The translations under genes were made by a program, and so were the position numbers. This document shows positions 3,430 to 30,654 of a stretch of DNA of 32,000 nucleotides, in pieces. Numbering within the stretch: the stretch's first letter is position 1; each line of letters opens with the position of its first letter. The notes under the pieces were generated by a model. The model was not told where the DNA came from. It saw only the letters and a list, made by a program, of their open reading frames with translations, and did no database searches. Source of the stretch: Candidatus Methylomirabilis sp. (lineage in GTDB: Bacteria; Methylomirabilota; Methylomirabilia; Methylomirabilales; Methylomirabilaceae). The DNA lies in the NCBI RefSeq assembly GCF_028716865.1, contig NZ_JAQUOY010000011.1:28337-60336 (forward strand). Reading direction: 5' to 3'.

Positions 3430-3570
3430 CACCACTGTCCGGTTGTTGGGTCATTCCATTGCTATAACTGCTGACACTGCGACAAGTAACGGTCCTTAGG
3501 GTTTTTCGCCGGTTTGCTCAGGCGACTACCGGCAATGACGCACACCTAGAAGCTGTAGGGAGGCGAGAAA

Positions 3571-4638: not shown

Positions 4639-4656
4639 TTACATTGCCCAAGAGGA

Positions 4657-4872
4657 TTACTTATTAACCGTCTCATCATAGACTGCACCCTGCGGCATAC
4701 CGTGCGGTAGCGTCATTGAAGTAACATACTGTCCCCCTGAGGTCTTGTCAAGAGATGCGCAACGACCCACTATACAAGATAGACATTGCCGTGATGTCAG
4801 CATGGGCTGATCACCATCGATTGACAGCCCCGTGACCAGCATGACCTTCAGGCGTGCGAGGTTGATCGTCAT
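4657..4872 (-). CDS. Small ORF (71 aa) at the island junction; possible 5' fragment of a truncated gene
   Basis: The ATG at 4872 overlaps the GT4 stop codon by 1 nt (TGATG), the same junction architecture as wzm/wzt. The ORF reads MTINLARLKVMLVTGLSIDG...CLSCIVGRC.... It terminates within about 20 nt of the switch from GC-rich to AT-rich sequence. I recognised no family. Confidence 0.25.
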   Translation of the reverse strand: MTINLARLKVMLVTGLSIDGDQPMLTSRQCLSCIVGRCASLDKTSGGQYVTSMTLPHGMPQGAVYDETVNK

Positions 4873-15230: not shown

Positions 15231-15236
15231 AAACAA

Positions 15237-15265
15237 CATGGCCGGGGGCAACGCCCCCGGCCATG
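15237..15265 (-). terminator. Intrinsic terminator hairpin between convergent genes
   Basis: Perfect 12-bp GC-rich stem: CATGGCCGGGGG (15237-15248) pairs with CCCCCGGCCATG (15254-15265), with a short loop. On the minus strand it is followed by TTGTTTTT. On the plus strand there is no U-tract. Confidence 0.7.
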
Positions 15266-15301
15266 TGACGAACGCGATGAAACAGCCTAGCTCGCGATCA
15301 G

Positions 15302-16654
15302 TTAGCGATTCGCGTGGCTGTTGTTATCGAGCCAGTTACCAGTCATGCTGTTGCTGTTACAGCTCTTAGTAGACTGGGAATTGGTAAGCTGGGAACTGGT
15401 ATTACCCAGGCCAAAGCACGGCCAGTTCAGCACAGAGACCTGGCGTGGGTCGTTCCAGTTGCGCAGCGCGTCACCTGTCTTCACGGCTGTCCCGGCAACC
15501 AGATCACTTGCCTGGATCTCGAACAAGACCCCGACCATACCGCGCTGACGACCAGAAGAGGTGTCGAAGCCGTTGCCGATGACAAAGTCCGGGTTGTTCG
15601 GCAAGGTTGAGCTTCCAACGGCGGGACCATTCGGCACCGCTTGCGTGTTGTCGAGATTGAACCAACCGACGGCATTGACCGCACCGAGTGTCGAGTCAAG
15701 CGTCGCGTAGCTTGCGCCACCAGAGGCGGCGTACTGAGTCCTGGCCTTCACCGTCGGGTAGACCGTGCAGAGGCGACCATTCAACAGATGGGCAAAGGCA
15801 GACACTGAGGTGGTGTGCTCCTCGCCATCGAAGACATCCCCTGCGGTGTTGACCAGCGTCGTGACGGCGCCAGTCGAGGCATTCAACTCCGAGCCTGGCG
15901 CTTCCTTCCTGAAGCCGTCGGCCGGCCCAGCGATGGAGATATAGGCGGTCAGCGTCGGGCTGGAAGCCGTGCACAGATCCTCCGCAAAGAACGCCGGGAA
16001 GAGGGCCTGGGAGGGGTACGTCTCATACAGCCCGGTCCAGGCGCTGGCGAAATCCCCAGCCGTTGCACGGGTCAAGATTTGGCTGGTGGAAATCGTGCGG
16101 GTATTCCCGCTAATGACCACAGAAGTCGTGGTAAATGTGCCTTGGGCCGATCCCTGGGCGGCTGCGGCCGGATAGGCGAAGGCAAAGTCCTTCACCGTAT
16201 CGATGATCACCGCCTCGCCCATCAGGGCATTGAGCTGATAGCTCGGTGAGTTTCGCAGGTTGGCGGAATCGCGCACATCCACATCCACCCAGCCGATCCC
16301 GTCAGAGGAGGTCTGCTTGGAGCCGCTGGGGGCAGGAGTGGCCGGGAGCGCCGCGGCACTACCGAGGGCCGCATTGACGGACACTGCCGCGATATCCTGA
16401 GGCGTCAAGATAACGGTCTGGTCGTTCCGCTGACAGTTCTGCCCGTAGAAGGTGAGGTGTGTGGGCGAGGTAATCGAGTTGCTGGCGTTTGTAAGGAGCA
16501 GGAAGGTCTGACGCCCCGTGGTGATATCAACGTACGGGAACAGCAGCCGAGAGCCGGGGACTAACTCCGTATTGGCGAACACTGCACTGGGCGCCGCGGT
16601 CGCCACGAGGGCGGTCGCGAGAAGCCCCACTAAACTATTGCGTAGAAGTTTCAT
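15302..16654 (-). CDS. Secreted Ala/Ser/Thr/Gly/Asn-rich protein of unknown function (candidate abundant surface protein)
   Basis: I chose the ATG at 16654, preceded by AAGGAGGGA 7 nt upstream. Sec signal MKLLRNSLVGLLATALVATAAPSAVFA|NT. I recognised no catalytic motifs. The gene is flanked by a near-consensus promoter, a leader of about 255 nt, and a strong terminator. Confidence 0.75.
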   Translation of the reverse strand: MKLLRNSLVGLLATALVATAAPSAVFANTELVPGSRLLFPYVDITTGRQTFLLLTNASNSITSPTHLTFYGQNCQRNDQTVILTPQDIAAVSVNAALGSAAALPATPAPSGSKQTSSDGIGWVDVDVRDSANLRNSPSYQLNALMGEAVIIDTVKDFAFAYPAAAAQGSAQGTFTTTSVVISGNTRTISTSQILTRATAGDFASAWTGLYETYPSQALFPAFFAEDLCTASSPTLTAYISIAGPADGFRKEAPGSELNASTGAVTTLVNTAGDVFDGEEHTTSVSAFAHLLNGRLCTVYPTVKARTQYAASGGASYATLDSTLGAVNAVGWFNLDNTQAVPNGPAVGSSTLPNNPDFVIGNGFDTSSGRQRGMVGVLFEIQASDLVAGTAVKTGDALRNWNDPRQVSVLNWPCFGLGNTSSQLTNSQSTKSCNSNSMTGNWLDNNSHANR

Positions 16655-16918
16655 CTGCGTGAATCCCTCCTTGAAGTGGTCGAGATCACCCATATTGTGA
16701 TACGCAGTCATGTCAATCTCGACCTGAACCGTGGTCTGTGAAACGATCGGTGAAACTTCTTACAGCGCTCTTCGTCTTTGCGCCACACCTCCTTCCTACC
16801 CCCTAAAAATTCCCCCCATTCACGTCCAACGTCTTTCAACCCCTTAGGATGTCACCCCCGCTGTTCACTACTATGGCCCATAGCCAGACGGAGAGGTAAC
16901 CCACGAACTTGGCCCTGT

Positions 16919-16947
16919 TATATATCCTGCTCATGGACCCATGTCAA
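16919..16947 (-). promoter_or_regulatory. Near-consensus sigma70-type promoter for the secreted-protein gene
   Basis: On the minus strand: TTGACA (16947-16942), a 17-nt spacer, then TATATA (16924-16919). It begins 10 nt after the stop of the upstream lipoprotein gene and implies a 5' leader of about 255 nt. Confidence 0.45.
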
Positions 16948-16956
16948 GCAAATTCT

Positions 16957-17448
16957 CTACTCCTGATTGAGGTCGGCTCCCCCGGGGGTTTTTGGTGGTC
17001 CAACCGCAGCGCGATATTGCAGATACCATTCACCATCCATCCACACCCAGCGCTGCTCGACATCCACCTCTTGGAGCGACAGGTGAGCCAATTTCGAGAA
17101 CATGATCTTATACTTGAGATGCAGCTTGGCCACGGCATCCGGGGATTTGACCTCGACCCCTTTGATCTCGTACTCAAGAATCTTTGTGGCCCCCTTGCCC
17201 CTGGCATAGGCTGTCAGCGACACACGTTCCCGCATCCAGGGCTCCTCGAACCTATACTGCTCCACGATGTCATCCCTGACCCGCGCATCCCAATACTGTC
17301 GGACGCGCTCCATTAATCGCTCATCCGGATCCTGGACGGCCTGCTTCAGGACTTGGCCCGCACAGGCCGACACTGCCAAGGCCGCCAGGGCGCACCAGAG
17401 GATGACTGTCCCCCGTCGGCGCCATGACGGGCGAGATCTCTGCCTCAT
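16957..17448 (-). CDS. Small lipoprotein, NTF2-like by sequence pattern, unknown function
   Basis: The ATG at 17448 forms an ATGA overlap with the upstream gene's stop. Lipobox LAVSA|C. The C-terminal pattern ...VEQRWVWMDGEWYLQY is typical of small NTF2/SnoaL-like folds; this is an inference. Confidence 0.7.
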   Translation of the reverse strand: MRQRSRPSWRRRGTVILWCALAALAVSACAGQVLKQAVQDPDERLMERVRQYWDARVRDDIVEQYRFEEPWMRERVSLTAYARGKGATKILEYEIKGVEVKSPDAVAKLHLKYKIMFSKLAHLSLQEVDVEQRWVWMDGEWYLQYRAAVGPPKTPGGADLNQE

Positions 17449-18617
17449 GCTTGGTTGACCCCTTTCCTCATCCACAGGCCGTGGTAGGCATGGCAGGCAT
17501 CGCCAACAAAGAGGTTCAGCAGCTCTTTGTTCCCGGCGGCCATCTTCCCCACCCCTACCCGTCCGATCCCCTGAATCACCGCTGCGAGCGCCTCTTCCCC
17601 GTCCCGGATCGCTCGCTCTTGGGCAGCGGTCGGACGAAAGAGCTGATACAGGCGAGCGTACTGGATCACCTCGGACGCATGTCCCAGGAATTTCAGCATG
17701 GCACTCGAGCGGTGGACCTGCACCAGATCCGGGGGAGACTGCTTCATGGCCTCCTGGAAGAAACGATCCATGAGGAAGCTGTCCGCCTTCAAACGCCAGA
17801 TCAGCAGGTCATACTGGTCCTTCATCCGGTCGGCAAAACGATTCTGTCGATAGCCGGACCTCAGGCAGGTCATGAGACCGTAGATCAGATGGGTGCCGCC
17901 ACAGGTGAAGTTATGAATCCAATCCTTCGAGGCCGGCATGGTCCCCTTCTGCTTGGCTGCCATCAGTTGTTTCGATGCGTCCTCCAGGGTAACCATACCG
18001 AACTCCACCACATCAGCAAAACGGACGGTCTTCCCATAGGCGTTTACCCAGGTGTCCTGTTTCGGAGGGGTGGTATTGGCAAATACGATCAGGCTCCAGG
18101 CCAGGTCGTTCCGGTCGAACGAGGCGGGATTAAACGCGAACAACGCCTTGGCGCCGGCCACGAGATCGCCGACCGTGCGCTGACGATCATGCCACCGGAA
18201 CGGATGGTTGGCCGTGATCCCCACATCCAAGGCCGCCTCGCTCAGGAAGGCGTTCGTGTGGCCCTCGACCTCGACCGGCATCGTGAGGTAGACCTTTCCG
18301 TTCACTGACTTCTCCTGCAGATACCGGCTGCACAGGTACTCGAATCCTGCGATGCCTTGAACGGAAAACCGCTCGCCTTTGGCGCGGACCCCGTGAAAGA
18401 GCACCCATGGGTTCTCTTTGTTGGCGGCGAACTCGAGGATGATTCCATCGAGGATCCGCTTGGTTTCTGAGGGCGCCGCAGCCTCCGCAGCGGAAAGCAG
18501 CGATCCCACGCCCTCGAGCGACAACGCGCCGCTCGCAGCCAGTCCTGCGCCTCCTGCAATCGCCCGCAGAAACCCCCGCCTGCTGAAACCCCCGCCTCGA
18601 CAACACGGACAGGCCAT
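17445..18617 (-). CDS. Tat-signal periplasmic protein of unknown function
   Basis: Twin-arginine motif FSRRGFLRAIAGGAGLAA, preceded by MACPCCRGGG. The mature part looks mainly alpha-helical, with Cys/His-containing blocks HNFTCGGTHLIYG and GDACHAYHG. I recognised no family. Confidence 0.75.
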   Translation of the reverse strand: MACPCCRGGGFSRRGFLRAIAGGAGLAASGALSLEGVGSLLSAAEAAAPSETKRILDGIILEFAANKENPWVLFHGVRAKGERFSVQGIAGFEYLCSRYLQEKSVNGKVYLTMPVEVEGHTNAFLSEAALDVGITANHPFRWHDRQRTVGDLVAGAKALFAFNPASFDRNDLAWSLIVFANTTPPKQDTWVNAYGKTVRFADVVEFGMVTLEDASKQLMAAKQKGTMPASKDWIHNFTCGGTHLIYGLMTCLRSGYRQNRFADRMKDQYDLLIWRLKADSFLMDRFFQEAMKQSPPDLVQVHRSSAMLKFLGHASEVIQYARLYQLFRPTAAQERAIRDGEEALAAVIQGIGRVGVGKMAAGNKELLNLFVGDACHAYHGLWMRKGVNQA

Positions 18618-18635
18618 CTCTATGTTTACCCCCCC

Positions 18636-18664
18636 TTGACGTTTGCCGGAATGTCGTTTATAAC
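18636..18664 (+). promoter_or_regulatory. Candidate sigma70-type promoter for the BNR lipoprotein / TMTC-like operon
   Basis: TTGACG (18636-18641), a 17-nt spacer, then TATAAC (18659-18664). This is about 78 nt upstream of the ATG at 18742. Confidence 0.45.
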
Positions 18665-18741
18665 ACCATAGTCGCTATACCCTGTCAACAGGATTTCACC
18701 GGATCCCGTTAGAAAAGAGAATCACAGGAGGGAACCATACG

Positions 18742-20265
18742 ATGACGCAGACAACGCGCGTTCTCTTCATCCTTGCGATGTGCATTGCCTTTACCTCCGG
18801 ATGCGTGAGCCAGCCGCGCGTTCCGCCCACACGCCCGGTGGCCGAGAAACTGCAAGCTCCCAGGGAAGGACCGGAGTTTCCAAGCCTCATGGCCGCCCTC
18901 GGTCCCAAAGGCGAGCTGTACCTGGTCTTTCACACGATCGACAGGGACACCAAGCTTCTTCAAGCCCTGTTCGCTCGCTCGACCGATCTTGGAGTAACCT
19001 GGGACAAGTCCCCTGTCCAGCTCTTCAGCACCACCGATCAAGACGTCTCGGTGAGTCTTCCGATCATCCAGACTGATGAAAAAGGGGGCATCTACCTTGT
19101 CTGGCGATGGAAGCGCCAGGGGATCAAACACATCTTTTTCACTCGATCGCTCGATGGGGGCCGGACGTGGCCTGGCCAGCCGACCCAGTTGGCGATTCCC
19201 GGCCAACCGTTCGCGCCCCTGATGGATGTCGATCCCACAGGCCATCTCTCCCTTCTCTGGCAGGACGAAGAGCAAGGCAAAAAGGGGTTCTGGTTTGTCG
19301 GGTCGATCGATTCCGGCGCCACATGGCAGGCGGAACCGGTCCGGCTCACTGCCTCTTCCCCCTCGACGGCCCGCCTCTATACACCCGGTCTCACGTCAGA
19401 CGGCAGAGGCCACGTCTACGCAGTCTGGCATGAAGTGGACCACAGCCCTCCTCACTTTACCCACTCGATCAAGCTGAATCGGTCGGCCGACTTTGGAGCC
19501 ACGTGGCTGCCGTCCGCTGAGACGGTGTATAGTACGCCGCACCATAGTCCGCCGTGGCCGGTTCATCCTTCTCTGTTCGCGGAGAGCGACGGGCACGTCT
19601 ACCTGCTCTGGCAGGAGTACGATTCTACCGGCATCTACGACCTCTACTTTATTCGCTCCGACGATGCCGGCGTGACGTGGCATCCGAAGGTCCGTCTGAA
19701 CACGACCCCACCGCGGGAGGCGATGGCCCGACATCACCAGTTGGCCTTCGATGGCCGAGGGAATCTCTACGCGGTCTGGGTGTCAGAGCACGACCAAGAC
19801 ACCATGATCGCCTTTCGCCGCTCGACAGACTTCGGTGAAACCTGGGGTCCGGAACTACGCCTTGATGAGCGCAAGCGGGGCGTCAACGCTCTGTCCCCAG
19901 TCATCGTCACCGACGTGAAGGGCCATGTCGTTACAGTGTGGCAACAAGAGGAGCGGAAGGGGTGGGGTGTGTATACCAACCGGTCCGACGATTTCGGTGT
20001 CACCTGGCTTCCCCGGCCTCTCCGGTTGGATACCCTCCCCGAGCGCGCCTCGCATCCGCGCCTGATCCAGCTTTTGAGCGATCGGACTGGACACCCGTAC
20101 GTCGTGTGGCGTGGAGATCCTTTTGGCAAGGAAGACTTCTTCATGACCCGTTCCACAGACCATGGCAAGAGCTGGCTACCGAAGGAGCAGTGGCTGACCG
20201 ACCCCTCGGAGCTCCACCTTCGCCAGGCAGCGGTCCAGGACGGAGGACCGCCATCGCGCCCATGA
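18742..20265 (+). CDS. Lipoprotein with eight BNR/Asp-box repeats (beta-propeller, sialidase/Ycf48-like fold class)
   Basis: SD AGGAGGGA upstream. Signal and lipobox-like FILAMCIAFTSG|C. Eight S-x-D-x-G-x-(T/S)-W boxes (STDLGVTW, SLDGGRTW, SIDSGATW, SADFGATW, SDDAGVTW, STDFGETW, SDDFGVTW, STDHGKSW) are spaced about 55-60 aa apart. Each is preceded by a G-x-(V/I/L)-Y-(L/A/V)-V-W strand. Confidence 0.85.
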   Translation: MTQTTRVLFILAMCIAFTSGCVSQPRVPPTRPVAEKLQAPREGPEFPSLMAALGPKGELYLVFHTIDRDTKLLQALFARSTDLGVTWDKSPVQLFSTTDQDVSVSLPIIQTDEKGGIYLVWRWKRQGIKHIFFTRSLDGGRTWPGQPTQLAIPGQPFAPLMDVDPTGHLSLLWQDEEQGKKGFWFVGSIDSGATWQAEPVRLTASSPSTARLYTPGLTSDGRGHVYAVWHEVDHSPPHFTHSIKLNRSADFGATWLPSAETVYSTPHHSPPWPVHPSLFAESDGHVYLLWQEYDSTGIYDLYFIRSDDAGVTWHPKVRLNTTPPREAMARHHQLAFDGRGNLYAVWVSEHDQDTMIAFRRSTDFGETWGPELRLDERKRGVNALSPVIVTDVKGHVVTVWQQEERKGWGVYTNRSDDFGVTWLPRPLRLDTLPERASHPRLIQLLSDRTGHPYVVWRGDPFGKEDFFMTRSTDHGKSWLPKEQWLTDPSELHLRQAAVQDGGPPSRP

Positions 20266-20302
20266 TGGAATCATCAATGAGCTCCCCACCTGACAGATTG
20301 CT

Positions 20303-22420
20303 ATGCCGAAGGGCGTGACAAGCAAGTCGCGACCGCCACAGTGGGAGGGCCACCGCAGGACAGAACGCCGACCTCCCCTCTCCCCAATCGGCTCCTTGTC
20401 TGAAAGCGAGCATCTTAAGATTAAGAGGCCGGACAGGCATAAGAGTTGGCTGGCCGCGGGGTGGTGGGTGGTGGCTGCCGCTGCCGCTGCCATCTACGCC
20501 AATGCGCTCGGCAACGGCTTCGTTGGCGATGACTACCCCATGATCTTACGAGACCCGCGGATCCGGGATCTCAAGAATATCCCGTCCTTTTTCATTCCCC
20601 CTGTTGCGTCGACACACGAGGTAATCGCGACGTATGGCTACCGCGTGACGATCGAGATCGCCCATACTATCGACTACTGGCTGTTCGGCCTCGAACCATG
20701 GGGATACCACGCCACCAATATCCTCTTTCACATCGTGGCCTCCACGCTCGCCTTTCTCATTGCCACCCGCCTGCTCGGAAAGTTGCTCCCGGCCCTCTTC
20801 GTGGGCCTCCTCTTTGCCGTCCATCCATCTCAAACGGAAGCCGTCGCCTATGTGACCGGCAGAAATGACGAACTCTACAGCATCTTTTATCTGGCGGGCT
20901 TTTACAGCTTTCTCCGCTACCGGGAACAGCCCAGCCGGCATTACCTGATTGGTCTCGTCTCCGCATTCGTGCTGTCCCTTCTCTCCAAGGAGGCAGGGGT
21001 CACCTTGCCGCTGACCCTGCTGGTCTTTGATAGCATCATGGGATTGACGTTCGAAGACCATCGGCAAGGCCCGACCCTGAGAGACTGGCGGCAGAGCCTC
21101 CGTGCCAGTTGGTACCGGTTCCGGCCTCTCTACCTCATGTGCTTCTTCCTCGCGGGGATCTTTGCCTATTACGTGGTCGCCTACAGCGCCGCCAGCGGCA
21201 AGAAGGAGTTCTGGGGAGGGGGGCTGGGGCCGACTCTCCTTACCTCGGCCCGAATTCACCTGCACCACATGATGCTCGTCCTCTTCCCTGCTACGCTCAG
21301 CGCCGATTACTCCTACAATGCATTTCCCGTATCGAGCACCATCTTCGACCCTGTCGGTCTGATAACGGTCGTGGCTGTAGCGACCATCCTGTACGGGTTG
21401 ATCCGGCTCGCCAGGGTCTCCCGAGTGGCCACTTTCGGCGGTCTCTGGTTCTTCATCACCCTCCTGCCTGTCTCCCAGCTCGTGCCCCATCATATCCTGA
21501 TGGCGGACCGCCATCTCTACCTGCCTTCGTTCGGCTTATTCCTGATGGCAGGCGTCCTGGTTGACAGGCTACACGAACATGGGCGCGCTCGTCAGCTTCT
21601 CTACACCTGTACTGCCGCCGTGCTGTTGATCCTGTCCGCCCGGACAGTCGTCCGAAACCGCGACTGGCGGGACGATTTCACGCTCTCGAGTAAGACCGTC
21701 CAGACGTCCCCCCAATCAGCTCTAGCCCATGTCGCCCTCGGCGAAATCCTCCGCAGGCGAGGCCGACTCGACCAGGCGGAGCGGGAATTCCGAACAGCGC
21801 TTGGCATTCATCCGAGCGAGCCCAAGGCCCACGCGGGAATGGGGGCCCTGCTCGCCATGCGGAAGCAGTGGGCCGAGGCGGAGCGGGAGCTGAAAATGGC
21901 CATGGAGCTGAACCCACTCTCCGATTACGGCCATCTGGAGCTCGGACGACTCTATCAGCTCCAAGACAGGTGGACCGAGGCCGAAGCAGAGCTGAAGCGC
22001 GCAGTGCAGCTATGGCCCAACTTCGACGAGGCCCACCTGAACCTGGGATTGGTCTACCTCAACCAAGGACGGCTGGCGGAGGCAGAGCGAGAGGTGTGGA
22101 CAGCCCTGGAGATTACGCCACGTCTGGCAGACGCGCACCTGGCACTGGGCCGCATAGCGCTTCAGGGTGGCCGAACGGACGAGGCCCTCGCCCACTTCCA
22201 GACCTCGGTTAAGCTGAAGCCTGACAACGCGTTCGCCCGCAACAACCTGGGTGTGCTGTACATACAAATGGGCCAGATCGAACCGGCGCTGGAGGAGTTT
22301 CAGGCCGCCCTCCGGATTACCCCGAATTTCGTCGAAGCCAGAGACAACCTTTGCCGGCTTTACTTGCGCCAAGGCCGTGTCGCCAATGCGGAAGCGCTTT
22401 GCCCCCGGCAATCGCACTGA
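20303..22420 (+). CDS. TMTC/PMT-like GT-C membrane glycosyltransferase fused to a C-terminal TPR array (paralogue 1)
   Basis: The N-terminal multi-TM domain (about 10 hydrophobic segments) opens with IYANALGNGFVGDDYPMI directly after TM1, the acidic loop-1 motif position of PMT/TMTC enzymes. The C-terminal part carries about 7 TPR units (AHVALGEIL...ARDNLCRLYLRQG). The exact start is uncertain. Confidence 0.8.
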   Translation: MPKGVTSKSRPPQWEGHRRTERRPPLSPIGSLSESEHLKIKRPDRHKSWLAAGWWVVAAAAAAIYANALGNGFVGDDYPMILRDPRIRDLKNIPSFFIPPVASTHEVIATYGYRVTIEIAHTIDYWLFGLEPWGYHATNILFHIVASTLAFLIATRLLGKLLPALFVGLLFAVHPSQTEAVAYVTGRNDELYSIFYLAGFYSFLRYREQPSRHYLIGLVSAFVLSLLSKEAGVTLPLTLLVFDSIMGLTFEDHRQGPTLRDWRQSLRASWYRFRPLYLMCFFLAGIFAYYVVAYSAASGKKEFWGGGLGPTLLTSARIHLHHMMLVLFPATLSADYSYNAFPVSSTIFDPVGLITVVAVATILYGLIRLARVSRVATFGGLWFFITLLPVSQLVPHHILMADRHLYLPSFGLFLMAGVLVDRLHEHGRARQLLYTCTAAVLLILSARTVVRNRDWRDDFTLSSKTVQTSPQSALAHVALGEILRRRGRLDQAEREFRTALGIHPSEPKAHAGMGALLAMRKQWAEAERELKMAMELNPLSDYGHLELGRLYQLQDRWTEAEAELKRAVQLWPNFDEAHLNLGLVYLNQGRLAEAEREVWTALEITPRLADAHLALGRIALQGGRTDEALAHFQTSVKLKPDNAFARNNLGVLYIQMGQIEPALEEFQAALRITPNFVEARDNLCRLYLRQGRVANAEALCPRQSH

Positions 22421-22452
22421 ACGCCTTCCGCCATAGAGCAGAGTATTCATTG

Positions 22453-23217
22453 ATGAGCGCTGCCCAATCGCTCGAAGATCTATCGTTGTCGATAATTATC
22501 CCGGCTTACAATGAGGCGAACCGCATCGGCGCCTCGCTTCACAAGATTGCGGTACACTTCTATGGGCGAACCGATCACCTCGAGGTAATCGTGGTTGACG
22601 ATGGGAGCCAGGACGCGACGAGTCGCATCGTCGAATCGATAGCGCAGGCGCATCCTTGGATTCAGCTGCTACGGAATGCGGTGAACACCGGGAAAGGTGC
22701 CGCGGTAAGAGCGGGTGTGCTTTCTGCAAAGGAAAACAGGATTGCCTTCTGCGATGCCGATCTTTCCGCACCGATTGAAGAGCTCAACGAACTTCTCACC
22801 TATCTGGATAAGGGATTCGATATCGCCATCAGTTCCCGGATCTCTGGTGGTCCGGCGAAGCACGTGAAGCGTGAACTGTTCCGTCGCCTCATGGCAGTCG
22901 TCTTCAACCGGTTTGTGCGGTTCCTGCTCATTCGCAAGATTGCCGATACCCAGTGCGGCCTGAAGGCATTTACACGACCAGTTGCTCTGGACCTCTTTGC
23001 CCAGCAATCCATCACCGGATTTGCCTTTGATGTCGAACTCCTTTGGCGTGCGCAGCGGGCCGGCCACCGAATCGTCGAGGTCCCAGTCTCTTGGGTCGCC
23101 GACCCAGAGAGTCGGATTCGGCCGTGGAGTGATTCGCTGACCATGGCTCGCGACGTCATCAGTCTGTGGTTTCACGAGCGAGTCATCCCCGCCTGGCGCG
23201 GAATAGCACACGGCTAG
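22453..23217 (+). CDS. GT2 polyprenyl-phosphate hexosyltransferase, soluble Dpm1/Alg5-like type
   Basis: I trimmed the start to the ATG at 22453, since the track ORF overlaps the upstream gene. Motifs LSIIIPAYNE, VIVVDDGSQDAT, NTGKGAAV, FCDADLSAP. There is no C-terminal TM helix. Confidence 0.85.
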   Translation: MSAAQSLEDLSLSIIIPAYNEANRIGASLHKIAVHFYGRTDHLEVIVVDDGSQDATSRIVESIAQAHPWIQLLRNAVNTGKGAAVRAGVLSAKENRIAFCDADLSAPIEELNELLTYLDKGFDIAISSRISGGPAKHVKRELFRRLMAVVFNRFVRFLLIRKIADTQCGLKAFTRPVALDLFAQQSITGFAFDVELLWRAQRAGHRIVEVPVSWVADPESRIRPWSDSLTMARDVISLWFHERVIPAWRGIAHG

Positions 23218-23419
23218 TTGAGCGCCGGCTATTGCCCCCGGCAGAGATCGAGAGACGACCACGGAGTATACTGCCTAATGGCAGATAGGTCGGCAACGGA
23301 TCGGGATTGTGAGCCTGTGGTGGGACCACGGACGGTAGCACAAGATGGATTCGCGAAGCTACACTGAAGGATGCAAGGGTTGCTTTGCTTCTGACTCGCA
23401 ATGGCGAGACCGTAGACGC

Positions 23420-24358
23420 TTATTTCAGGATGACATCGATCGGGGGATCGCTTTCGCGGTTTGACCCGTAGACGATCATTTCTGCCAGGAGACCAAAGGA
23501 GACAAGTTGAATCCCGCCAATGACCATGAGGGTACCCAGTATAAAGAGCGGACGGGACCCGATCCATTGACCAAACAGCCAGCCGACCGACAGGTAGGCG
23601 ACGATGCCAAAGCCAATCAACCCCACGACAACACCTAGCAAGCCGAAGAAGTGAAGCGGGCGAGTCGTATAACGGGTGAGTATCAGGACCGTCAGCAGGT
23701 CGAAGAAGCCCCGCGGGATTCGCTCAGCCCCGTACTTCGACCGGCCATACTTTCTCGGGTGGTGCGCGACCTCGATCTCACCGATCCTGAACCCACGCCA
23801 ACTGGCCAGTACCGGGATAAACCGGTGAAGCTCCCCGTAGAGTCTCATTTCCTGAATCACCACGCGTCGATAGACCTTGAACCCGCAGTTGAGGTCGTGG
23901 AGCTTGACCCCGGTCAGCCGGCAGGTGACCCGATTGAAGATGGCCGACAGGAACCGCCGAGACCAGGGATCGCGGCGCGTCGCCTTCCAGCCAGAGACCA
24001 GATCGTACCCCTCCTCCAACTTTTGCAGGAACCGGGGGATCTCCTTGGGATCGTCTTGCAGATCGGCATCCAAGGTGATGATCACTTCGCCCCTGGCCTC
24101 CCGGAATCCAGCCGTCAGTGCCACGGCTTTCCCCTGGTTACTCCGAAGTCGAATGGCCTTGAGCCGCTTGTCCCCCTCTTGCAGGCATTTCAACGCCTCG
24201 AACGAGCCGTCGGTGCTACCGTCGTCCACATAGATCATCTCGCACCGGTCGGCAAACGGCAGTAGGGCCGCTGCCAGCGCAGCGTGCAGTTCGGGTAGGC
24301 TTTCGGCCTCGTTGTACAGTGGGATCACCACGGAGAGTTCCGGATGGCCTGCCGTCAT
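23420..24358 (-). CDS. GT2 polyprenyl-phosphate glycosyltransferase, GtrB/ArnC-like with two C-terminal TM helices
   Basis: Motifs LSVVIPLYNE, IYVDDGSTDGS, NQGKAVAL, ITLDADLQDDP, SGWK..R.D. Two C-terminal hydrophobic helices are present (LHFFGLLGVVVGLIGFGIVAYL; LFILGTLMVIGGIQLVSFGLLAEMIV). Its ATG overlaps the upstream TMTC-like gene's stop (ATGA). Confidence 0.88.
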   Translation of the reverse strand: MTAGHPELSVVIPLYNEAESLPELHAALAAALLPFADRCEMIYVDDGSTDGSFEALKCLQEGDKRLKAIRLRSNQGKAVALTAGFREARGEVIITLDADLQDDPKEIPRFLQKLEEGYDLVSGWKATRRDPWSRRFLSAIFNRVTCRLTGVKLHDLNCGFKVYRRVVIQEMRLYGELHRFIPVLASWRGFRIGEIEVAHHPRKYGRSKYGAERIPRGFFDLLTVLILTRYTTRPLHFFGLLGVVVGLIGFGIVAYLSVGWLFGQWIGSRPLFILGTLMVIGGIQLVSFGLLAEMIVYGSNRESDPPIDVILK

Positions 24359-26157
24359 GGCACTGCTCCCCTTACCGGTTCAACCGTCAGCCCGCCGCTC
24401 CCCCGGAGACGCTGTAATCGCGCTAAGTTCTGCTGGGCCTCGCTGAGGTCGGGTATCCGGGCAAGCGCCGCCCGGAATGCCGCCTCTGCCTCCGCCATCC
24501 GACCATCCTTGGCAAATAGGACGCCCAGATTGTTGTGCGCATAGGCATCATACGGGGCTTTAGCCAGCGCCGCCCGAAACTGTTGTTCCGCCTCGGGTAC
24601 CCGCCCCATTCGCACTAAGACCGTCCCAAGCCACAGATGTGGAATCATCTCGCCTGCGTTCAGCCGAACGGCCGTCTGGAGTTCCCGCTCTGCCCGCTCC
24701 AGGTCATCCCGGTCAAAAGCGATCTTGCCGAGGTTGCCGTGAGCGGTCGCGAAATCGGGCTGGAGACGCACCGCTGTTTCTATCTCCTCTTCAGCTCGCG
24801 CAATCTCCCCGCGACGGAGGTACGCCGACCCCAGATTATTCCTGGCCCTCGCCGTCTGTGGTGCGACCTGTACCGTCTGGCTCCAGAGGGTCAGGTCATC
24901 CCTCCAATCAGTGTTCCGCCAGACCGTACGGAGAGACAAGAGGAGAAGAACCACAGCACCAGCCACATAGAGCGCCGGGGCGGCCTTTGGGTGATCCACC
25001 AGCGGGTCTAAGAGCCCCGCAATCATCAGGAAAAATCCAACCGATGGAGTATAGAGGAAGTGCTCGGCCATCATATCATGATGGGGGATGATCTGTGAGA
25101 CCGGGAGCAGCGCGGCAAAAAACCACACGCCACCGATGGCGACTATTGGTTTGGTCCTCAGGCATCTCAGCACGCCATATCCGAGCGCCGCAAGGATCAG
25201 GACAGCCGCTAGTGCTTCTGCGTCCGTCCAGGAGGTAGTGACAGGGAACGCAGAGTAGTCGACATTAAGCGTGAGCGGGAAGATCAACAGCTTGATGTAA
25301 TGGAGGAAGACCCTGGCCATGGTGAGTCCGGTGAACCAGAGGCTCCCACCATAATAAGTCCGCACCCAAGTCCCGCGAACGAAGAAAAGGACGTAGAAGG
25401 CCAGCCCTCCTCCTAGAACAACCAATGGCATGTAGAATAGGCGGGCTTCACGAACAGCGGACCAGGCGCAGGTCCCGATCTCCTGAAGGGTCGGAATACC
25501 GGGGGTCGATTCCTTGGCCTGAATCCGGCTGATCAGGTCATAGCCGAAACAGAGTAGCGGCAGGATGATGCCGCTCTCTTTTGAAAAGAACGCCAGCGGG
25601 TACACGAGCAGTACGGAGGCGAGGTATCCTGCCCGGCCGGTCTGTCGGTACCGGAGGAACAGATACAACCCCAGTAGAACAAAAAAGCCGGCCAGCACAT
25701 CCCGCCTGCCGGATAGGTATGTCACCGACTCTGTCTGAATGGGATGAATAGCAAAGAGGATCGCCGTAAAGAGGGCCGGGGTCAGTCGCTTGAACAGGCT
25801 CTGGGCAATCAGGAACACAACAACGGCTGAGAGGGTATGATAGGCAATATTGCTCAGATGATAGCCCCACGGGTCGCGGCCGGAGAGGGCGTAGTCGAAG
25901 GCATACGAGGCGCTCCGAATGGGGCGGTATGCCGCCCCGCCCTTCAGCAAGCTGGAGAGCTGACCGAAGTGCCCTGACCCTCCAGCGGTCTGCTCAGCAA
26001 CAATCGTTTCTAGGTCATCGAACAGAAACTCGTTGTGGAGCGAGTTGGCGTACACGAGCCAGGTGATCGCTGCAACGACAAGGACAGGCCACAGGCGTGA
26101 AGGCGACCATCGCGTTGCCGTCACGGTTGATCGCGCTTCAGCTCTTCTCTTTTTCAT
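24355..26157 (-). CDS. TMTC/PMT-like GT-C membrane glycosyltransferase fused to a C-terminal TPR array (paralogue 2)
   Basis: ATG at 26157. Same architecture as 20303..22420: TM1, then VYANSLHNEFLFDDLETI, then a multi-TM domain, then about 4-5 TPR units (ARNNLGSAYLRRG...AHNNLGVLFAKDG). Confidence 0.8.
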   Translation of the reverse strand: MKKRRAEARSTVTATRWSPSRLWPVLVVAAITWLVYANSLHNEFLFDDLETIVAEQTAGGSGHFGQLSSLLKGGAAYRPIRSASYAFDYALSGRDPWGYHLSNIAYHTLSAVVVFLIAQSLFKRLTPALFTAILFAIHPIQTESVTYLSGRRDVLAGFFVLLGLYLFLRYRQTGRAGYLASVLLVYPLAFFSKESGIILPLLCFGYDLISRIQAKESTPGIPTLQEIGTCAWSAVREARLFYMPLVVLGGGLAFYVLFFVRGTWVRTYYGGSLWFTGLTMARVFLHYIKLLIFPLTLNVDYSAFPVTTSWTDAEALAAVLILAALGYGVLRCLRTKPIVAIGGVWFFAALLPVSQIIPHHDMMAEHFLYTPSVGFFLMIAGLLDPLVDHPKAAPALYVAGAVVLLLLSLRTVWRNTDWRDDLTLWSQTVQVAPQTARARNNLGSAYLRRGEIARAEEEIETAVRLQPDFATAHGNLGKIAFDRDDLERAERELQTAVRLNAGEMIPHLWLGTVLVRMGRVPEAEQQFRAALAKAPYDAYAHNNLGVLFAKDGRMAEAEAAFRAALARIPDLSEAQQNLARLQRLRGSGGLTVEPVRGAVP

Positions 26158-26255
26158 CTCACGGACGGGGTCGCCATCGAGACGGACCTCTCGACCTTGT
26201 GCGACCCCTCGCTCCTGGGATGGACTGGGAAAGCGTGTCCGCTCTTCCGCAGGGG

Positions 26256-26284
26256 TTGATTTTTACTCGTCCCCCGTGTAGAGT
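26256..26284 (+). promoter_or_regulatory. Weak candidate promoter for the GT4 gene
   Basis: TTGATT (26256-26261), a 17-nt spacer, then TAGAGT (26279-26284), in the 160-bp divergent intergenic region. Each hexamer matches consensus at only 4 of 6 positions. Confidence 0.25.
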
Positions 26285-26318
26285 CCCAACCACAAAGGGG
26301 GGTCATTCCGGTGAGCCG

Positions 26319-27446
26319 ATGCGAATCTGTCTGATTGGTCCGGCATACCCGTTGAGGGGGGGGATAGCCCACTATAATTCTCAACTGGCCTTGGAGTTCG
26401 CCACGCGCCATGATACCACCCTCATCTCGTTCTCGCGCCAGTACCCGGCGCTGTTGTTCCCGGGCCGGACACAGTTGGACCAAGGCGCTCCACCAGAAGG
26501 ACTGACATCCGAAGCCCTCCTCGACTCGATGAACCCCTTCACCTGGAGCCGGGTCGGACGCCGGATCGCCGAACTGACTCCCAACCTCACTGTGATCCAC
26601 TGGTGGAACCCATTCTTCGCACCGTGCATCGGAATGATCGGACGGTTCGCCAAAAGGAGGTCTCGCACCGCCGTGGCCTTCATCTGTCACAATGTCTTTC
26701 CGCACGAACCGTTTCCCGGGGCGCGCGGACTGACCAGATTCGCGCTGGCCCCAGGCGATGCGTGGCTGGTCCATTCTGAAAACGACCGACGAGACCTGGA
26801 GTCGCTGACCCTGCAAGGCCAAACCCTTCTGGTCCCCCAACCTCCAGGGAAAGGGTTCGGCGAACCGATCGACAAAGAGGAGGCGAAAAGCCGTCTTGGC
26901 CTCTCCGGAAACACCCTCCTCTTCTTCGGTCTGATTCGCCGTTACAAAGGACTTCCTGGGCTGCTCCAGGCGATGCCTCGCATCCTCCAGAGCTTAGACT
27001 GTACCCTACTCGTGGTCGGAGAGTTCTACGAGGGGAAAGACCACTGTCTGGAACTCATCGGCAACTTAGGCCTCGCGTCGCGCGTCCGGGTCGTCGATCG
27101 CTTCGTTCCAGACAACGAAGTCGGCCTCTACTTTTCCGCAGCCGACTTGGTCGTGCTCCCCTACGAATCGGCTACCCAAAGCGCCATCGTCCCGATCGCC
27201 TATGCCTTTGAGCGGCCGGTGCTGGCCACTCGTGTGGGCGGGCTGCCGGAGGCTATCCGTGACGGGGAAACCGGCATTCTCGTCGAACCGCGCAATTCAA
27301 CCGCCCTGGCAGAGGCGATCATCCGCTTCTACAAGGAAGACGTGGGGAGCATATTTCGCCGGCATATCCTGAAACAGCAACACTTTTCCTGGGGGGAACT
27401 GGCTATCGCGCTGGAAGCCGCGGCGACCAGCCACACCTCATACTGA
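26319..27446 (+). CDS. GT4 (group 1) glycosyltransferase
   Basis: I trimmed the start to the ATG at 26319. The track ORF from 26097 overlaps the divergent gene and has no GT-like N-terminus. MRICLIGPAYPLRGGIAHY is a typical GT-B start. C-terminal block VLPYESATQSAIVPIAYAFERPVLATRVGGLPE. Confidence 0.8.
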   Translation: MRICLIGPAYPLRGGIAHYNSQLALEFATRHDTTLISFSRQYPALLFPGRTQLDQGAPPEGLTSEALLDSMNPFTWSRVGRRIAELTPNLTVIHWWNPFFAPCIGMIGRFAKRRSRTAVAFICHNVFPHEPFPGARGLTRFALAPGDAWLVHSENDRRDLESLTLQGQTLLVPQPPGKGFGEPIDKEEAKSRLGLSGNTLLFFGLIRRYKGLPGLLQAMPRILQSLDCTLLVVGEFYEGKDHCLELIGNLGLASRVRVVDRFVPDNEVGLYFSAADLVVLPYESATQSAIVPIAYAFERPVLATRVGGLPEAIRDGETGILVEPRNSTALAEAIIRFYKEDVGSIFRRHILKQQHFSWGELAIALEAAATSHTSY

Positions 27447-27869: not shown

Positions 27870-30614
27870 TTGCCATCTCTCGCCCTTCTTGCGTATGGTT
27901 GTGCTGAGGTTACATGTGTCCCTTTTAACTGGAGAGTTTTACGATTGAAAACGCTTAAATCGGCACTGATCGTTCTGCTGCTGGGGCTGACGACCGCTGC
28001 CGTCGTTGGCGTGCTTCTGCTCACGTTCCTCCTACCCACCCTCCTCCAGCAGTTCGCCTGCGCGCCGTATGGGATTCGCTGCGCCGTCGGGCAGGCCAAC
28101 ATCCGCCTCCGCCAGAACCTGACCGCAGACCTCGTGATTGACCATCTCACACTGTTTGACCCGGATGGCCGAGGTGTGGCGCTGCAGGTGAAGCGTCTCG
28201 CCACCACGCTGAACATTCCGGCGCTGATCCTCACGCACCAGGTCATGCCGACCGAGGTCCGGATCGAGAGCCCGGAACTGCTGCTCAGGCAGCTCGACGA
28301 TGGCCGGTGGAATCTAGTGGCGTTGGCTCAGGAGGTACAGCAGCATCTGCGGCCCACCACCCGGCCCACAACATTGCAACTCCCCCGAGCCTCTGTAACC
28401 GCCGGAACGCTTCAGATCGGCGGCCATCGAGTCACCGATCTAAATGTGACGCTCGAGCCGAAGCCGGCCCCTTTACTGTTTGAGATGCAGGCGCGGGCCG
28501 CCGTCGGTGGACGATCGGTTCAGGTCAGCGGCGCCTTGAAGAATACGCTCGAGGGGCAGATCCTGGCGCAGGTCCAGGAGACCATGCTGCGGGGCGCACT
28601 GCGGTTTCGCCTTGATCAGTTGGGTCGCGCCGTGACTATTCCCGAATGGTCGTTCGAGGCGGATGGGGCGATGGCTCGCGGGTCAGCGGCCATTCGATAT
28701 GCCAACTGGCCGCCCGCCTATATGCTAACCGTCGCGCAGTGGCGGGCAGGTCTCACGGTATTGGCACATCGGCTCTCCTTCTCCGGGCTTGCAGACCTGA
28801 CGGGCACGATAGAGGGCGAGCCGACTACGCTGCAGGGCCACTGGCTGGAGCTGCCTGTCGGAGAGGTCACGGCCACGCTCAGAGACGGTGGACTGGAGGT
28901 CGCTAAGCCGCGATTCGGGGTCACGGGGCTCAGTGGACGTCTCAACCTCTCGTTGCCGGACGGAGACCGCCCATGGAAGGCGGAGATGATGAGCCGATCG
29001 ATACAACTGCACGCTGCCACCATGGATGGTGCGACAACACTGCAAACCGCTCAGATCGCCGTGCAAGGGATTGGGATATCGGGGCGTGATCTTCAAGGCA
29101 CACTCGCCATTGGACAGGTCAACCTCACTGGTCGGCAACTGCGCGCACTCAGGGCCAGGTTTGAAATAGACCCTGACCAGGTTCGAATCTCGGAGTTTCA
29201 TGTTGCCGTTGGTGATGGGAATGTCCGTGGCCACGCCTCGTTTTCGAGGTCTACGCCCCTGCAAGAGACGCGCGTGGCGCTTTCGGTACGCGGCCTCCGC
29301 CCGCAGTCGTTGTTCACCCCCACCGAAAAGCCGGCAGCGCGACAAGGAGTTACGCTCGATGCCGACCTCTTCGCAGACGCTACATTCGGCGGATCGCAAC
29401 CTCCTGCTGCCGGCGGCGCGATGACGCTTCGAGGCCTCTCGCTTAGCCTGGCACGGCAAGCGGCTGAGCCGGTGCCTCTGCTCACGGGTATCCGCGGCGA
29501 AGTCGCTTTCACCCTCGACAGGGGCCTGCTGACGATCAAAGAGACGACCCTTCGGATCGACGGAGGACTGACGCTCACCCTCGCAGGCAGTCTGCCGCTC
29601 GGCCATAACGACCGCAGCGCGACCCGGTTTCACGTGACCGTCCCCTGGACAGAGGTCGCCGCGCTCCGCTCCCCACTGACCGCCATGACGGGAGGTCGGC
29701 CTGATGCAACTCGCCTCACCGGTCAACTTCAGGCAAACCTCGAGCTCATCGACCAGGAATATCACGCAGCGCTTTCCCTGCGAAACGTCGGTATAGAATC
29801 GAGCAGCTTCCGTCTGGACAGCGCAAGCGGCGTAATCCCGCTGCGCGGACGGATCGATCAGGGTCCGACTGTACCCCTGCACCAGGTCGCGGCCCAGCAG
29901 AGAGCACGCTGGTCCCAGCTCACCAAACGTGAGTATCGCGCGGCACTGGAGAGGTTATCGAACGTGGCGGACCGGACGCCATTCTCGCTGACTATCGGCT
30001 CACTCCGCTACGACCCGATCGAGCTTCGCAATATCGAGGTCGCCCTCGCCTCGTCCGGAAACCAGATCGCCGTACAGCGGTTTGTTTTTGACGCCTCGGG
30101 CGGGCGGTGGAGCGGCTGGGGAACGGTCGAGCCGCTGGGCGGGGGGATCGCTCTGGCCTTGCTCACGGAGGGACTCAGCCTGCGCGCAATTTGTGATGCC
30201 TTTCCGCCGATCACAGGGTATATTAACGGTCGGATCAACGGGATGGCCGACCTCGAGGTTCCGCACTTTGCCCTCGACCAGGCACAAGGCAGCGCGCGAT
30301 TCTGGGCTGTAGACTCCCCGCAAGAGAAGCGAAGGATCAGCCGCACCCTAATCGAACAGTTGGCGGGACAGCAGATCCGCTATTTCAGCCTGTTTGGAGT
30401 AGCTCGCCGCTATAATCGCGGCGTGCTGGAGGTGGCCTTGAAAGCGAGCGATCTGATCTTTCACGAACTTGAAATTTCCCACACGATCCTGGGGTATAAG
30501 GATCTGGATGTTCGAGTCTCGCCTGTCTTTAACAGGATCGGGTTAGCTCACCTGCTCGAGAGCATCGGCGAAGCAGCCGAGCGGATCAGAGCCTCGGCCA
30601 AGCCGAACCACTAA
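27870..30614 (+). CDS. ydbH: AsmA-superfamily, YdbH-like intermembrane lipid-transfer (bridge) protein
   Basis: N-terminal membrane anchor (ALIVLLLGLTTAAVVGVLLLTFLL), then about 850 aa of beta-rich, low-complexity-free sequence typical of AsmA/TamB/YdbH proteins. C-terminal block ...GYINGRINGMADLEVP...RYNRGVLEVAL.... The main evidence is synteny with a DUF1318/YdbL-like gene 40 nt downstream. A TTG at 27945, with GGAGAG 8 nt upstream, is a plausible alternative start. Confidence 0.75.
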   Translation: MPSLALLAYGCAEVTCVPFNWRVLRLKTLKSALIVLLLGLTTAAVVGVLLLTFLLPTLLQQFACAPYGIRCAVGQANIRLRQNLTADLVIDHLTLFDPDGRGVALQVKRLATTLNIPALILTHQVMPTEVRIESPELLLRQLDDGRWNLVALAQEVQQHLRPTTRPTTLQLPRASVTAGTLQIGGHRVTDLNVTLEPKPAPLLFEMQARAAVGGRSVQVSGALKNTLEGQILAQVQETMLRGALRFRLDQLGRAVTIPEWSFEADGAMARGSAAIRYANWPPAYMLTVAQWRAGLTVLAHRLSFSGLADLTGTIEGEPTTLQGHWLELPVGEVTATLRDGGLEVAKPRFGVTGLSGRLNLSLPDGDRPWKAEMMSRSIQLHAATMDGATTLQTAQIAVQGIGISGRDLQGTLAIGQVNLTGRQLRALRARFEIDPDQVRISEFHVAVGDGNVRGHASFSRSTPLQETRVALSVRGLRPQSLFTPTEKPAARQGVTLDADLFADATFGGSQPPAAGGAMTLRGLSLSLARQAAEPVPLLTGIRGEVAFTLDRGLLTIKETTLRIDGGLTLTLAGSLPLGHNDRSATRFHVTVPWTEVAALRSPLTAMTGGRPDATRLTGQLQANLELIDQEYHAALSLRNVGIESSSFRLDSASGVIPLRGRIDQGPTVPLHQVAAQQRARWSQLTKREYRAALERLSNVADRTPFSLTIGSLRYDPIELRNIEVALASSGNQIAVQRFVFDASGGRWSGWGTVEPLGGGIALALLTEGLSLRAICDAFPPITGYINGRINGMADLEVPHFALDQAQGSARFWAVDSPQEKRRISRTLIEQLAGQQIRYFSLFGVARRYNRGVLEVALKASDLIFHELEISHTILGYKDLDVRVSPVFNRIGLAHLLESIGEAAERIRASAKPNH

Positions 30615-30654
30615 GCTACAGTCATTGAGGACCGTAGACAGAAGGAGGACGTGG

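Follow-up and report, generated by a model that had tools for sequence, protein, structure and literature searches.

TMTC-like GT-C/TPR proteins and their candidate lipid-phosphate-sugar synthases in an envelope-glycan locus of Candidatus Methylomirabilis

What is the function of two large membrane proteins that end in tetratricopeptide repeats (TPRs) and that are each encoded beside a family 2 glycosyltransferase (GT2) in a bacterium of the genus Candidatus Methylomirabilis? Their genes lie in positions 28,337 to 60,336 of contig NZ_JAQUOY010000011.1 (RefSeq assembly GCF_028716865.1), a stretch of 32,000 nucleotides that we call the window and whose own coordinates are used throughout. An earlier note on this DNA had interpreted them as a mirror-image pair of cassettes for periplasmic glycosylation, and the list of open reading frames (ORFs) of the window contained all four genes at the coordinates claimed for them. 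Protein A (705 residues; 20303..22420, forward strand; about seven C-terminal TPRs) is followed by GT2a (254 residues; 22453..23217, forward strand), and protein B (600 residues; 24355..26157, reverse strand; about five TPRs) by GT2b (312 residues; 23420..24358, reverse strand). The two pairs converge on a gap of 202 bp, for which a scan for intrinsic terminators and promoters was uninformative.

A and B are paralogs (39% identity across 564 residues, E 4e-113). As had been proposed, they share one architecture, consisting of a first transmembrane (TM) helix, the motif YAN(A/S)LxNxF(V/L)xDD, further TM helices (11 in the model described below) and the TPR array. The motif is matched exactly in both proteins, as 65-YANALGNGFVGDD in A and 36-YANSLHNEFLFDD in B; further motifs of A are HPSQTE, GRND, SKE, DYS, LPVSQLVPHH and DRHLY. 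When 30 homologs, A and B among them, were aligned, the two aspartates D47 and D48, located in the loop that follows TM1 (42-95), were invariant. Y77-R78 (YRP), H138-P139-x-Q-T142, G150-R-R-D153, K193-E194, D300-Y301, P352, P358-H359-H360 and E365-H366-x-x-Y369 were invariant or nearly so.

Pfam searches returned many TPR matches in each protein and placed PMT_2 above its cutoff of 26.1 bits in both (38.7 bits for B and 26.3 bits for A). TMTC_DUF1736 was matched, at the equivalent loop, by all 30 homologs at E<=0.01 (best 7e-8); being below the curated threshold, these matches indicate relatedness to TMTC and not curated membership of that family. No MIR domain was detected by Pfam in A or B, nor is there room for one, the TPRs coming straight after TM11. 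The PMT_2 matches, the relatedness to DUF1736 and the lack of MIR indicate that A and B are TMTC-like members of the PMT_2 clan and not true protein O-mannosyltransferases (PMTs).

The amino acid sequence of A is 100% identical to a protein that NCBI names 'tetratricopeptide repeat protein [Candidatus Methylomirabilis sp.]'. The NCBI model of A (P0121, 649 residues) begins 56 codons after the ATG at 20303, losing half of TM1. The start of A is thus uncertain; since the later start would cut the helix, the upstream ATG is the better choice, and the omission of 20303..20470 is likely a start-site error of the deposited annotation.

We modelled B with AlphaFold2. The full-length model (pLDDT 84.7, pTM 0.84) showed 11 TM helices followed by TPRs at residues 421-585 (about five), and a Foldseek search with it returned TPR proteins only (OGT, SPY, APC/C). 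As the repeats swamped this search, residues 1-421 were modelled alone (pLDDT 84.5, pTM 0.88), which exposed the similarity of the membrane domain to GT-C enzymes. The top 37 matches in the PDB were all GT-C proteins or the GT-C-like subunit of GPI transamidase (chain U), and included STT3/OST, AglB, Pmt4, PglB, ArnT (5f15), DPY19, Pmt1/2 and Emb. The Foldseek probability was 1.00 for the top 24, and TMq amounted to 0.45-0.50 in most of the top dozen and was lower below; E was about 1e-4 for all, so that the scores do not separate GT-C subfamilies. By sequence, the membrane domain found no match in the PDB at E<=10, and full-length B found TPR proteins only.

Wzy_C and the O-antigen ligase family were not matched in A or B by Pfam or NCBIfam, and WaaL and Wzy structures were absent among the Foldseek matches listed for the membrane domain of B. 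Taken together with the restriction of the fold matches to GT-C proteins, this supports a GT-C fold and excludes an O-antigen ligase or polymerase fold, an alternative that the earlier note had itself raised against its GT-C reading. The acidic loop on which that reading had been built thus lies in a domain that is modelled as GT-C and is conserved across the 30 homologs.

We considered on which side of the membrane this loop would be found. Lysine and arginine account for 13 of the 52 residues (25%) in the loops of B assigned to the cytoplasm versus 9 of 129 (7%) in those assigned to the periplasm. By parity, this bias and the 11 TM helices would place the DD loop, the KE motif, the DY loop, the PHH...EHxxY loop and the TPR array on the periplasmic side. 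The model supports a topology with the N-terminus inside and the TPR array outside, as in TMTC. These data support the assignment of A and B to the GT-C glycosyltransferases well, and they also support a TMTC-like architecture.

The comparison with TMTC was made through a published list of motifs. Human TMTC proteins have a topology with 11 TM helices and seven motifs, M1 to M7, which are DD, SHKSYRP, RxD, KE(T/Q)xxT, DW, PxxP and ERxxY (PMC7801869, Table 4). TMTC1-4 (GT105, with DUF1736 and TPRs) are O-mannosyltransferases that use dolichyl-phosphate mannose and act on cadherins. They resemble A and B in the number of TM helices, the inside N-terminus, the C-terminal TPRs on the far side, the DD in the first outer loop, the presence of RxD (GRRD or GRND here) and KE at equivalent loops, a DUF1736-like loop between TM7 and TM8, and the logic of a lipid-phosphate-monosaccharide donor. 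Several motifs differ. Of M2, SHKS is absent and only YRP (in B) or YRV (in A) is left; DY takes the place of the DW of M5; M7 reads EHxxY in B and most of the family, and DRxxY (DRHLY) in A; and M6 was not recognised, LPVSQxxPHH being present instead. Furthermore, the donor lipid of A and B would be undecaprenyl phosphate, and this organism is not expected to have cadherins as acceptors.

Actinobacterial and fungal PMTs (GT39) with their partner Ppm1 or Dpm1 are a second parallel. They share the PMT_2/PMT-clan domain, the acidic first loop and the association with a polyprenyl-phosphate-sugar synthase, they modify serine or threonine of proteins, and the structural matches to B include Pmt4 and Pmt1/2. 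Unlike them, A and B are devoid of MIR and carry a TPR array after the last of 11 TM helices. Prokaryotic homologues of TMTC have already been noted in passing in the literature; in the publications searched we found neither a characterised bacterial TMTC-like enzyme nor an assigned acceptor, and only TfpW as an analogue.

Both GT2 proteins fit the role of donor synthase. GT2a contains the motif DADLSAP and no hydrophobic segment. It matched Glycos_transf_2 (99 bits, Pfam), its best NCBIfam matches included dolichyl-phosphate hexose transferase and PpgS, and in the PDB it matched ArnC (3e-14) and DPMS (1e-13). NCBI names the identical protein dolichyl-phosphate beta-glucosyltransferase, and JGI names its relatives likewise (Alg5-like). 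GT2a is probably an Alg5/Dpm1-like polyprenyl-phosphate hexose synthase, of the glucose type to judge by these matches. GT2b contains DADLQDDP and two C-terminal hydrophobic helices (TM segments at 232-298). It matched ArnC (E 1e-54) and GtrB sll0501 (E 2e-39) over its full length in the PDB, and scored 203 bits with the NCBIfam model of ArnC, of which the equivalog cutoff is 529, and 150 bits with that of PgfS. From its sequence it is classified as a generic polyprenyl-phosphate sugar synthase of the GtrB/ArnC/PgfS class. Motifs, database matches and hydropathy thus agree with the earlier description of one soluble and one membrane-anchored synthase. The ATGA overlap of 4 nucleotides between the genes of B and GT2b, also described there, is read directly in the sequence (...gtgccATGAcggca...).

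Do the two pairs form one unit? To answer this, we compared the window with contigs of relatives (L081-L086 and L089) and with homolog loci surveyed across phyla (lower L numbers). In the nearest relative (L081/L082) the ortholog of B is 80% identical and the order GT4, B-GT2b, BNR lipoprotein is kept, while A and GT2a are absent; GT4 denotes here a family 4 glycosyltransferase and BNR a lipoprotein gene, both described below. Blastn of the window against L081 gave a DNA identity of 87-89% on both sides (15231..20275 and 23417..27368), and the segment in between, 20276..23416, which corresponds exactly to A+GT2a, is replaced there by 410 bp. A and GT2a thus come and go together as one clean presence/absence cassette, which provides modest evidence that they act together.

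In the relatives L084 and L085, the convergent layout of an A-like gene and a B-like gene with GT2b is kept, and the position of GT2a is occupied otherwise. In L083-L085 this position holds a short Exosortase_EpsH-like ORF (170-178 residues) and an ORF of about 200 residues. These exosortase-like pairs are located at 2101..3226 in L083, 11801..12899 in L084 and 9636..10770 in L085, and the match covers only the C-terminal part of the EpsH profile. In L086, an A-like gene lies directly beside Wzt-Wzm-methyltransferase-PMT_2. Orthologs of GT2a in other NC10 genomes adjoin different PMT_2 proteins and AnmK, and no A-GT2a pairing was found outside this genome. A more distant contig, L089 (6001..10835), encodes an Alg5-like GT2, a protein of 508 residues without Pfam match and a separate protein of 595 residues made up entirely of TPRs; the GT-C/TPR architecture may be present there in split form.

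By contrast with A-GT2a, the pairing of B with GT2b recurs. The genes overlap by 4 nucleotides or are immediate neighbours in L081, L085, L007, L008 and L015, are also paired in L084, and form a divergent pair in L001, L018, L037, L046 and L065. A third gene, which had been overlooked, accompanies them: the GT4 encoded at 26316..27446 (forward strand, divergent from B; Glyco_trans_1_4 and Glycos_transf_1 matches). Its ortholog adjoins GT2b in L081/L082 and in four loci from Acidobacteria (L018, L037, L046 and L065), the copies in L018, a member of the Blastocatellia, being 41% (GT4) and 54% (GT2b) identical to those of the window. This recurrence indicates that the conserved module consists of a GT-C/TPR protein, a GtrB-type GT2 and a GT4. 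The mirror-symmetric four-gene unit of the earlier note, with its convergent A-GT2a and GT2b-B halves, is real in this genome and does not exist as a conserved entity, since it is missing from L081 despite the high identity of the flanks.

The family to which A and B belong is widespread. A scan of GTDB representative genomes yielded 80 loci, in 76 of which the GT-C/TPR gene was called. They came from Methylomirabilota, Thermodesulfobacteriota and other delta-proteobacteria, Nitrospirota, Acidobacteriota, Planctomycetota (many of them Brocadia and Kuenenia), Omnitrophota, Elusimicrobiota, Clostridia and Woesearchaeota. A search with the membrane domain of B, counted in clusters at 50% identity, gave 81,464 (E<=1e-3), 47,224 (E<=1e-10) and 1,647 (E<=1e-30) clusters. 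Tandem arrays of two to five GT-C/TPR paralogs occurred in 12 loci (L041, L050, L063, L048, L052, L061, L066, L071, L073, L010, L014 and L020), which belong to Omnitrophota, delta-proteobacterial, Planctomycetota and Nitrospiraceae genomes. Single Brocadia or Kuenenia genomes contained several separate contigs, each with a GT-C/TPR copy.

Unbiased clustering of the neighbours in the 80 loci showed that, apart from the family itself, the commonest genes belong to a single GT2 family (16 genes in 14 loci). Next come a second GT2 family (8 loci), Wzm-like and GT4 proteins (5 loci each) and Wzt-like proteins (4 loci). The best family matches of the short GT2 neighbours in Omnitrophota and Brocadia were all AglJ, dolichyl-phosphate-hexose, PpgS or ArnC. 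Where such a GT2 was present, it lay nearer to the GT-C/TPR gene than expected from uniform placement in the surveyed flanks (Fisher combined p 3e-9 in 14 loci; 1.4e-6 in nine representative loci), phylogenetic non-independence being only partly handled in these p-values. Yet a GT2 of the GtrB class was found within 8 kb in only 14 of the 76 loci with a called GT-C/TPR gene, 66 of the 76 having 3 kb or more of flanking sequence on at least one side. In a neighbour-joining tree, this linkage was concentrated in the super-clade that holds A and B. The linkage to GT2 genes is thus real and enriched, as had been anticipated, but it is the property of a sub-clade and not of the whole family, most members of which have no such GT2 within 8 kb.

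From these observations we propose the following scheme, in which A and B would be inverting-type GT-C transferases of the TMTC-like branch of the PMT_2 clan. At the cytoplasmic face, a GT2 would load undecaprenyl (polyprenyl) phosphate with one sugar taken from a nucleotide sugar, GT2b serving B and GT2a, probably of the Alg5-like glucose type, serving A. Some flippase would then move the lipid-phosphate sugar across the membrane, and the GT-C site would pass the single sugar to a periplasmic acceptor. This site would combine the DD loop that follows TM1 on the periplasmic side with the KE motif, the DUF1736-equivalent DY loop and the PHH...E(H/R)xxY loop. The periplasmic TPR array would hold the acceptor, for which serine or threonine of folded envelope proteins is favoured, as in TMTC and TfpW. 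B+GT2b+GT4 would form the conserved core, and A+GT2a an accessory cassette, variable among close relatives, that brings in a second specificity for sugar or acceptor. The enzyme class and the membrane side are supported by fold, motifs, topology and synteny; what we infer is the identity of donor lipid, sugar and acceptor, and the flipping step. A and B are most likely periplasmic monosaccharide transferases that use polyprenyl-phosphate sugars, a donor for which the adjacent synthase-class GT2 genes and their enriched linkage provide indirect support.

We favour a protein acceptor because TPR-bearing glycosyltransferases with known acceptors, such as TMTC and TfpW, modify proteins; modification of serine or threonine through this mechanism seems to us to come close to an even chance. 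TfpW of Pseudomonas aeruginosa, which transfers D-arabinofuranose to pilin, is the sole characterised bacterial GT-C enzyme with a periplasmic TPR domain that came up in our searches, and TMTC the sole homologous family of which the acceptor is known. TfpW differs from A and B in its setting: tfpW lies directly downstream of pilA and depends on DprE-type D-arabinofuranose donors, whereas no pilin gene adjoins A or B. In L081, genes for a type II secretion system and pseudopilins are present upstream; none of them occurs in the window.

Conserved neighbours in Methylomirabilota also count for a protein acceptor. The gene 37 bp upstream of A (18742..20265, forward strand) encodes a BNR/Asp-box beta-propeller lipoprotein with BNR_2 and BNR matches, the translation of which shows a lipobox-like signal sequence with a cysteine; it adjoins GT-C/TPR genes in L081, L083, L084 and L085, and it might be an acceptor or a partner of A and B. 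With three other secreted proteins it forms a set of four genes (15302..20265) that is kept beside GT-C/TPR genes in the Methylomirabilota contigs L081 and L083-L085. This set consists of a secreted protein of 469 residues rich in threonine, serine and alanine, a protein of 172 residues, a protein of 390 residues with a twin-arginine signal and the BNR lipoprotein, which alone has a Pfam match.

Several observations weigh against the scheme, against a protein acceptor or against both. Most characterised bacterial pairs of GT2 and GT-C act on glycans or lipids. A is without a dedicated GT2 in L084, L085 and L086. No GtrA-like flippase was detected, in that no ORF of the window shorter than 260 residues has two or more strongly hydrophobic segments in a crude hydropathy scan, and such a gene could lie elsewhere. 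Of the profiles by which the earlier note had hoped to recognise the family, PMT_2 held above its cutoff while TMTC_DUF1736 did not (22.5 bits for A and 18.2 for B, with a Pfam cutoff of 27). Histidine occupies the position of the phosphate-binding arginine of TMTC in B and in 90% or more of the family; A keeps an arginine there. The genes of A and B, as well as B-type modules in other phyla, are found in settings of the polysaccharide or lipopolysaccharide (LPS) type. Finally, the S-layer protein of M. lanthanidiphila has no detectable glycans (PMC8671808).

The S-layer protein was itself considered as an acceptor and rejected. In Kuenenia, the S-layer protein is heavily O-glycosylated, and the paper that describes this names no enzyme. 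The many GT-C/TPR paralogs of anammox genomes make this a lead, not evidence.

We considered the possibility that the same enzymology serves a glycan acceptor, namely that A and B add side chains, after export and in the manner of Gtr or Gml systems, to an undecaprenyl-diphosphate- or LPS-linked polysaccharide exported by the Wzm/Wzt of the locus. The TPR array would then bind the polymer or dock on the export or ligation machinery, and A+GT2a would be a serotype-converting accessory cassette. Scans of the window proteins with Pfam and NCBIfam indicated that the window is a single long envelope-glycan locus, with Wzm/Wzt, GT2s, GT4s, a PIG-L deacetylase, a GNAT protein, methyltransferases, a third GT-C and a PhyH-SCP2 protein. 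Along the window, a GT2, an amine-oxidase-like gene and a GT2 are followed by GT4, PIG-L and GNAT, by Wzt and Wzm, by PhyH-SCP2 and a methyltransferase, by the third GT-C, by the four conserved genes for secreted proteins or lipoproteins and by the A-GT2a-GT2b-B block, and then by the GT4 described above.

The exporter consists of Wzt, an ABC ATPase with Wzt_C, and Wzm, an ABC-2 permease (8257..10301, reverse strand; Pfam ABC_tran+Wzt_C and ABC2_membrane). A Wzt/Wzm pair is also present beside the A-like gene of L086 and beside the GT4-GT2b-GT-C/TPR trio of the Blastocatellia locus L018, in which Wzm/Wzt follow the trio. B-type modules elsewhere have a Wzx-like gene (L008) or a GT9 heptosyltransferase gene beside the pair (L015). 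The third GT-C (12777..14501, reverse strand; PMT_2 45.5 bits, PMT 31.4 bits) has no TPR and has orthologs in L084 and L086. L081 lacks the middle of this gene (window 13202..14122), so that the content in GT-C genes varies between close relatives. Together with the A+GT2a indel, this partial deletion between genomes that are 87-89% identical resembles surface-antigen variation or seroconversion.

Comparison with Gtr-type systems (GtrA/GtrB/GtrC, as for O-antigen side chains in Klebsiella and Citrobacter) pointed in the same direction. There too, a GT2 makes an undecaprenyl-phosphate sugar that a GT-C transfers in the periplasm, and the genes are adjacent, modular and variable between strains and may lie in loci for ABC-transporter-dependent polysaccharides. 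This three-component paradigm has been documented for ABC-transporter-dependent O antigens (PMC11127046). However, the window contains no GtrA, SMR or MATE flippase gene, the conserved third gene being a GT4 instead. In addition, A and B bear TPR arrays and not a carbohydrate-binding module or no extra domain; none of the glycan-modifying GT-Cs of the cited literature has a TPR array, the example in PMC11127046 having a carbohydrate-binding module. TMTC, the closest homologous family with a known acceptor, modifies proteins, and most members of the family, including the arrays of two to five paralogs, lie outside recognisable polysaccharide loci within 8 kb. Because of the repeated polysaccharide and LPS neighbours (Wzm/Wzt, Wzx, GT9), a glycan acceptor is nearly as likely as a protein, and we regard it as a serious contender even if we do not expect it.

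A third explanation is that the GT-C transfers its sugar to lipid A, to the core or to a glycolipid primed in the cytoplasm by the GT4, in the manner of ArnT/ArnC or of phosphatidylinositol mannoside synthesis. ArnC is the top-scoring named relative of GT2b, which aligns with it from end to end, ArnT (5f15) is among the structural matches, and the conserved third partner is a cytoplasmic GT4. In mycobacteria, PimA/B act first, followed by Ppm1 and PimE, a logic that can be likened to the order GT4, GT2 and GT-C. Yet GT2b remains far below the equivalog cutoff of ArnC, A and B have no match to the NCBIfam model of ArnT, no genes of the ArnA/B/D type were seen in scans of the window, and ArnT-type enzymes have no TPR array. 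We therefore consider modification of a lipid improbable.

We consider it very improbable that one or both proteins belong to the O-antigen ligase/polymerase type or transfer oligosaccharides en bloc from undecaprenyl diphosphate instead of single sugars from undecaprenyl phosphate. In favour of this reading, STT3, AglB and PglB are top structural matches, and TfpW has been proposed to unite both activities. Against it, ligase families and folds went unmatched in the searches described above, the Foldseek E-values do not discriminate between GT-C subfamilies, the tight translational coupling is to a synthase of lipid-phosphate monosaccharides, and the WWDxG-type periplasmic domain of STT3/PglB is absent, the TPR array following TM11.

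Some other features of the locus deserve mention. The first part of the window (1..4700) has a GC content of about 40%, versus about 60% in the remainder, and encodes two GT2s (31..1674 and 3571..4638), an ORF of 143 residues and an amine-oxidase-like flavoprotein (2035..3435). This segment is probably a variable end of the glycan cluster that was acquired by lateral transfer. Between Wzm/Wzt and the methyltransferase and GT-C genes, 10639..11934 encodes a PhyH-type dioxygenase fused to an SCP2 sterol-carrier domain, which is kept in L086. In L081, a group II intron reverse transcriptase (RVT_1+GIIM; 18225..20092) is inserted at the equivalent of window position 15231. At the other end of the window, 27870..31329 encodes a protein of 914 residues similar to AsmA/YhdP/DUF748 and, after it, a DUF1318 protein of which the N-terminus is lipobox-like, a pair that resembles envelope lipid-transport operons of the ydbH-ynbE-ydbL type.

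GtrB-class synthases that work with a GT-C are a familiar paradigm, and the enzymology proposed here is unsurprising to the specialist. The present analysis adds that a GT4 is a conserved partner, that an indel marks A+GT2a as an accessory cassette, that relatives carry exosortase-like genes where GT2a lies in the window, and how large the family is. The locus provides testable modules, in the form of a coupled pair of transferase and donor synthase with its GT4, and of a natural presence/absence variant of a second pair. Identification of the acceptor would annotate a very large family and show whether TMTC-type, TPR-guided protein glycosylation predates eukaryotes. If the acceptor is a polysaccharide, the logic of three-component seroconversion would extend to a new GT-C subtype, a useful but unsurprising outcome.

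A broader idea, which we hold to be rather unlikely, is that the bacterial TMTC-like family performs a widespread, domain-specific O-glycosylation of periplasmic proteins and is the prokaryotic counterpart, possibly the ancestor, of the cadherin O-mannose pathway of animals. In that case, each TPR array would pick a class of folded envelope proteins, here the BNR lipoprotein and the neighbouring secreted proteins, and in relatives proteins sorted by the exosortase. The arrays of two to five genes in anammox bacteria, Omnitrophota and delta-proteobacteria would be substrate-specialised sets like TMTC1-4, and cassettes that vary between strains, A+GT2a among them, would make the surface glycoproteome more diverse.

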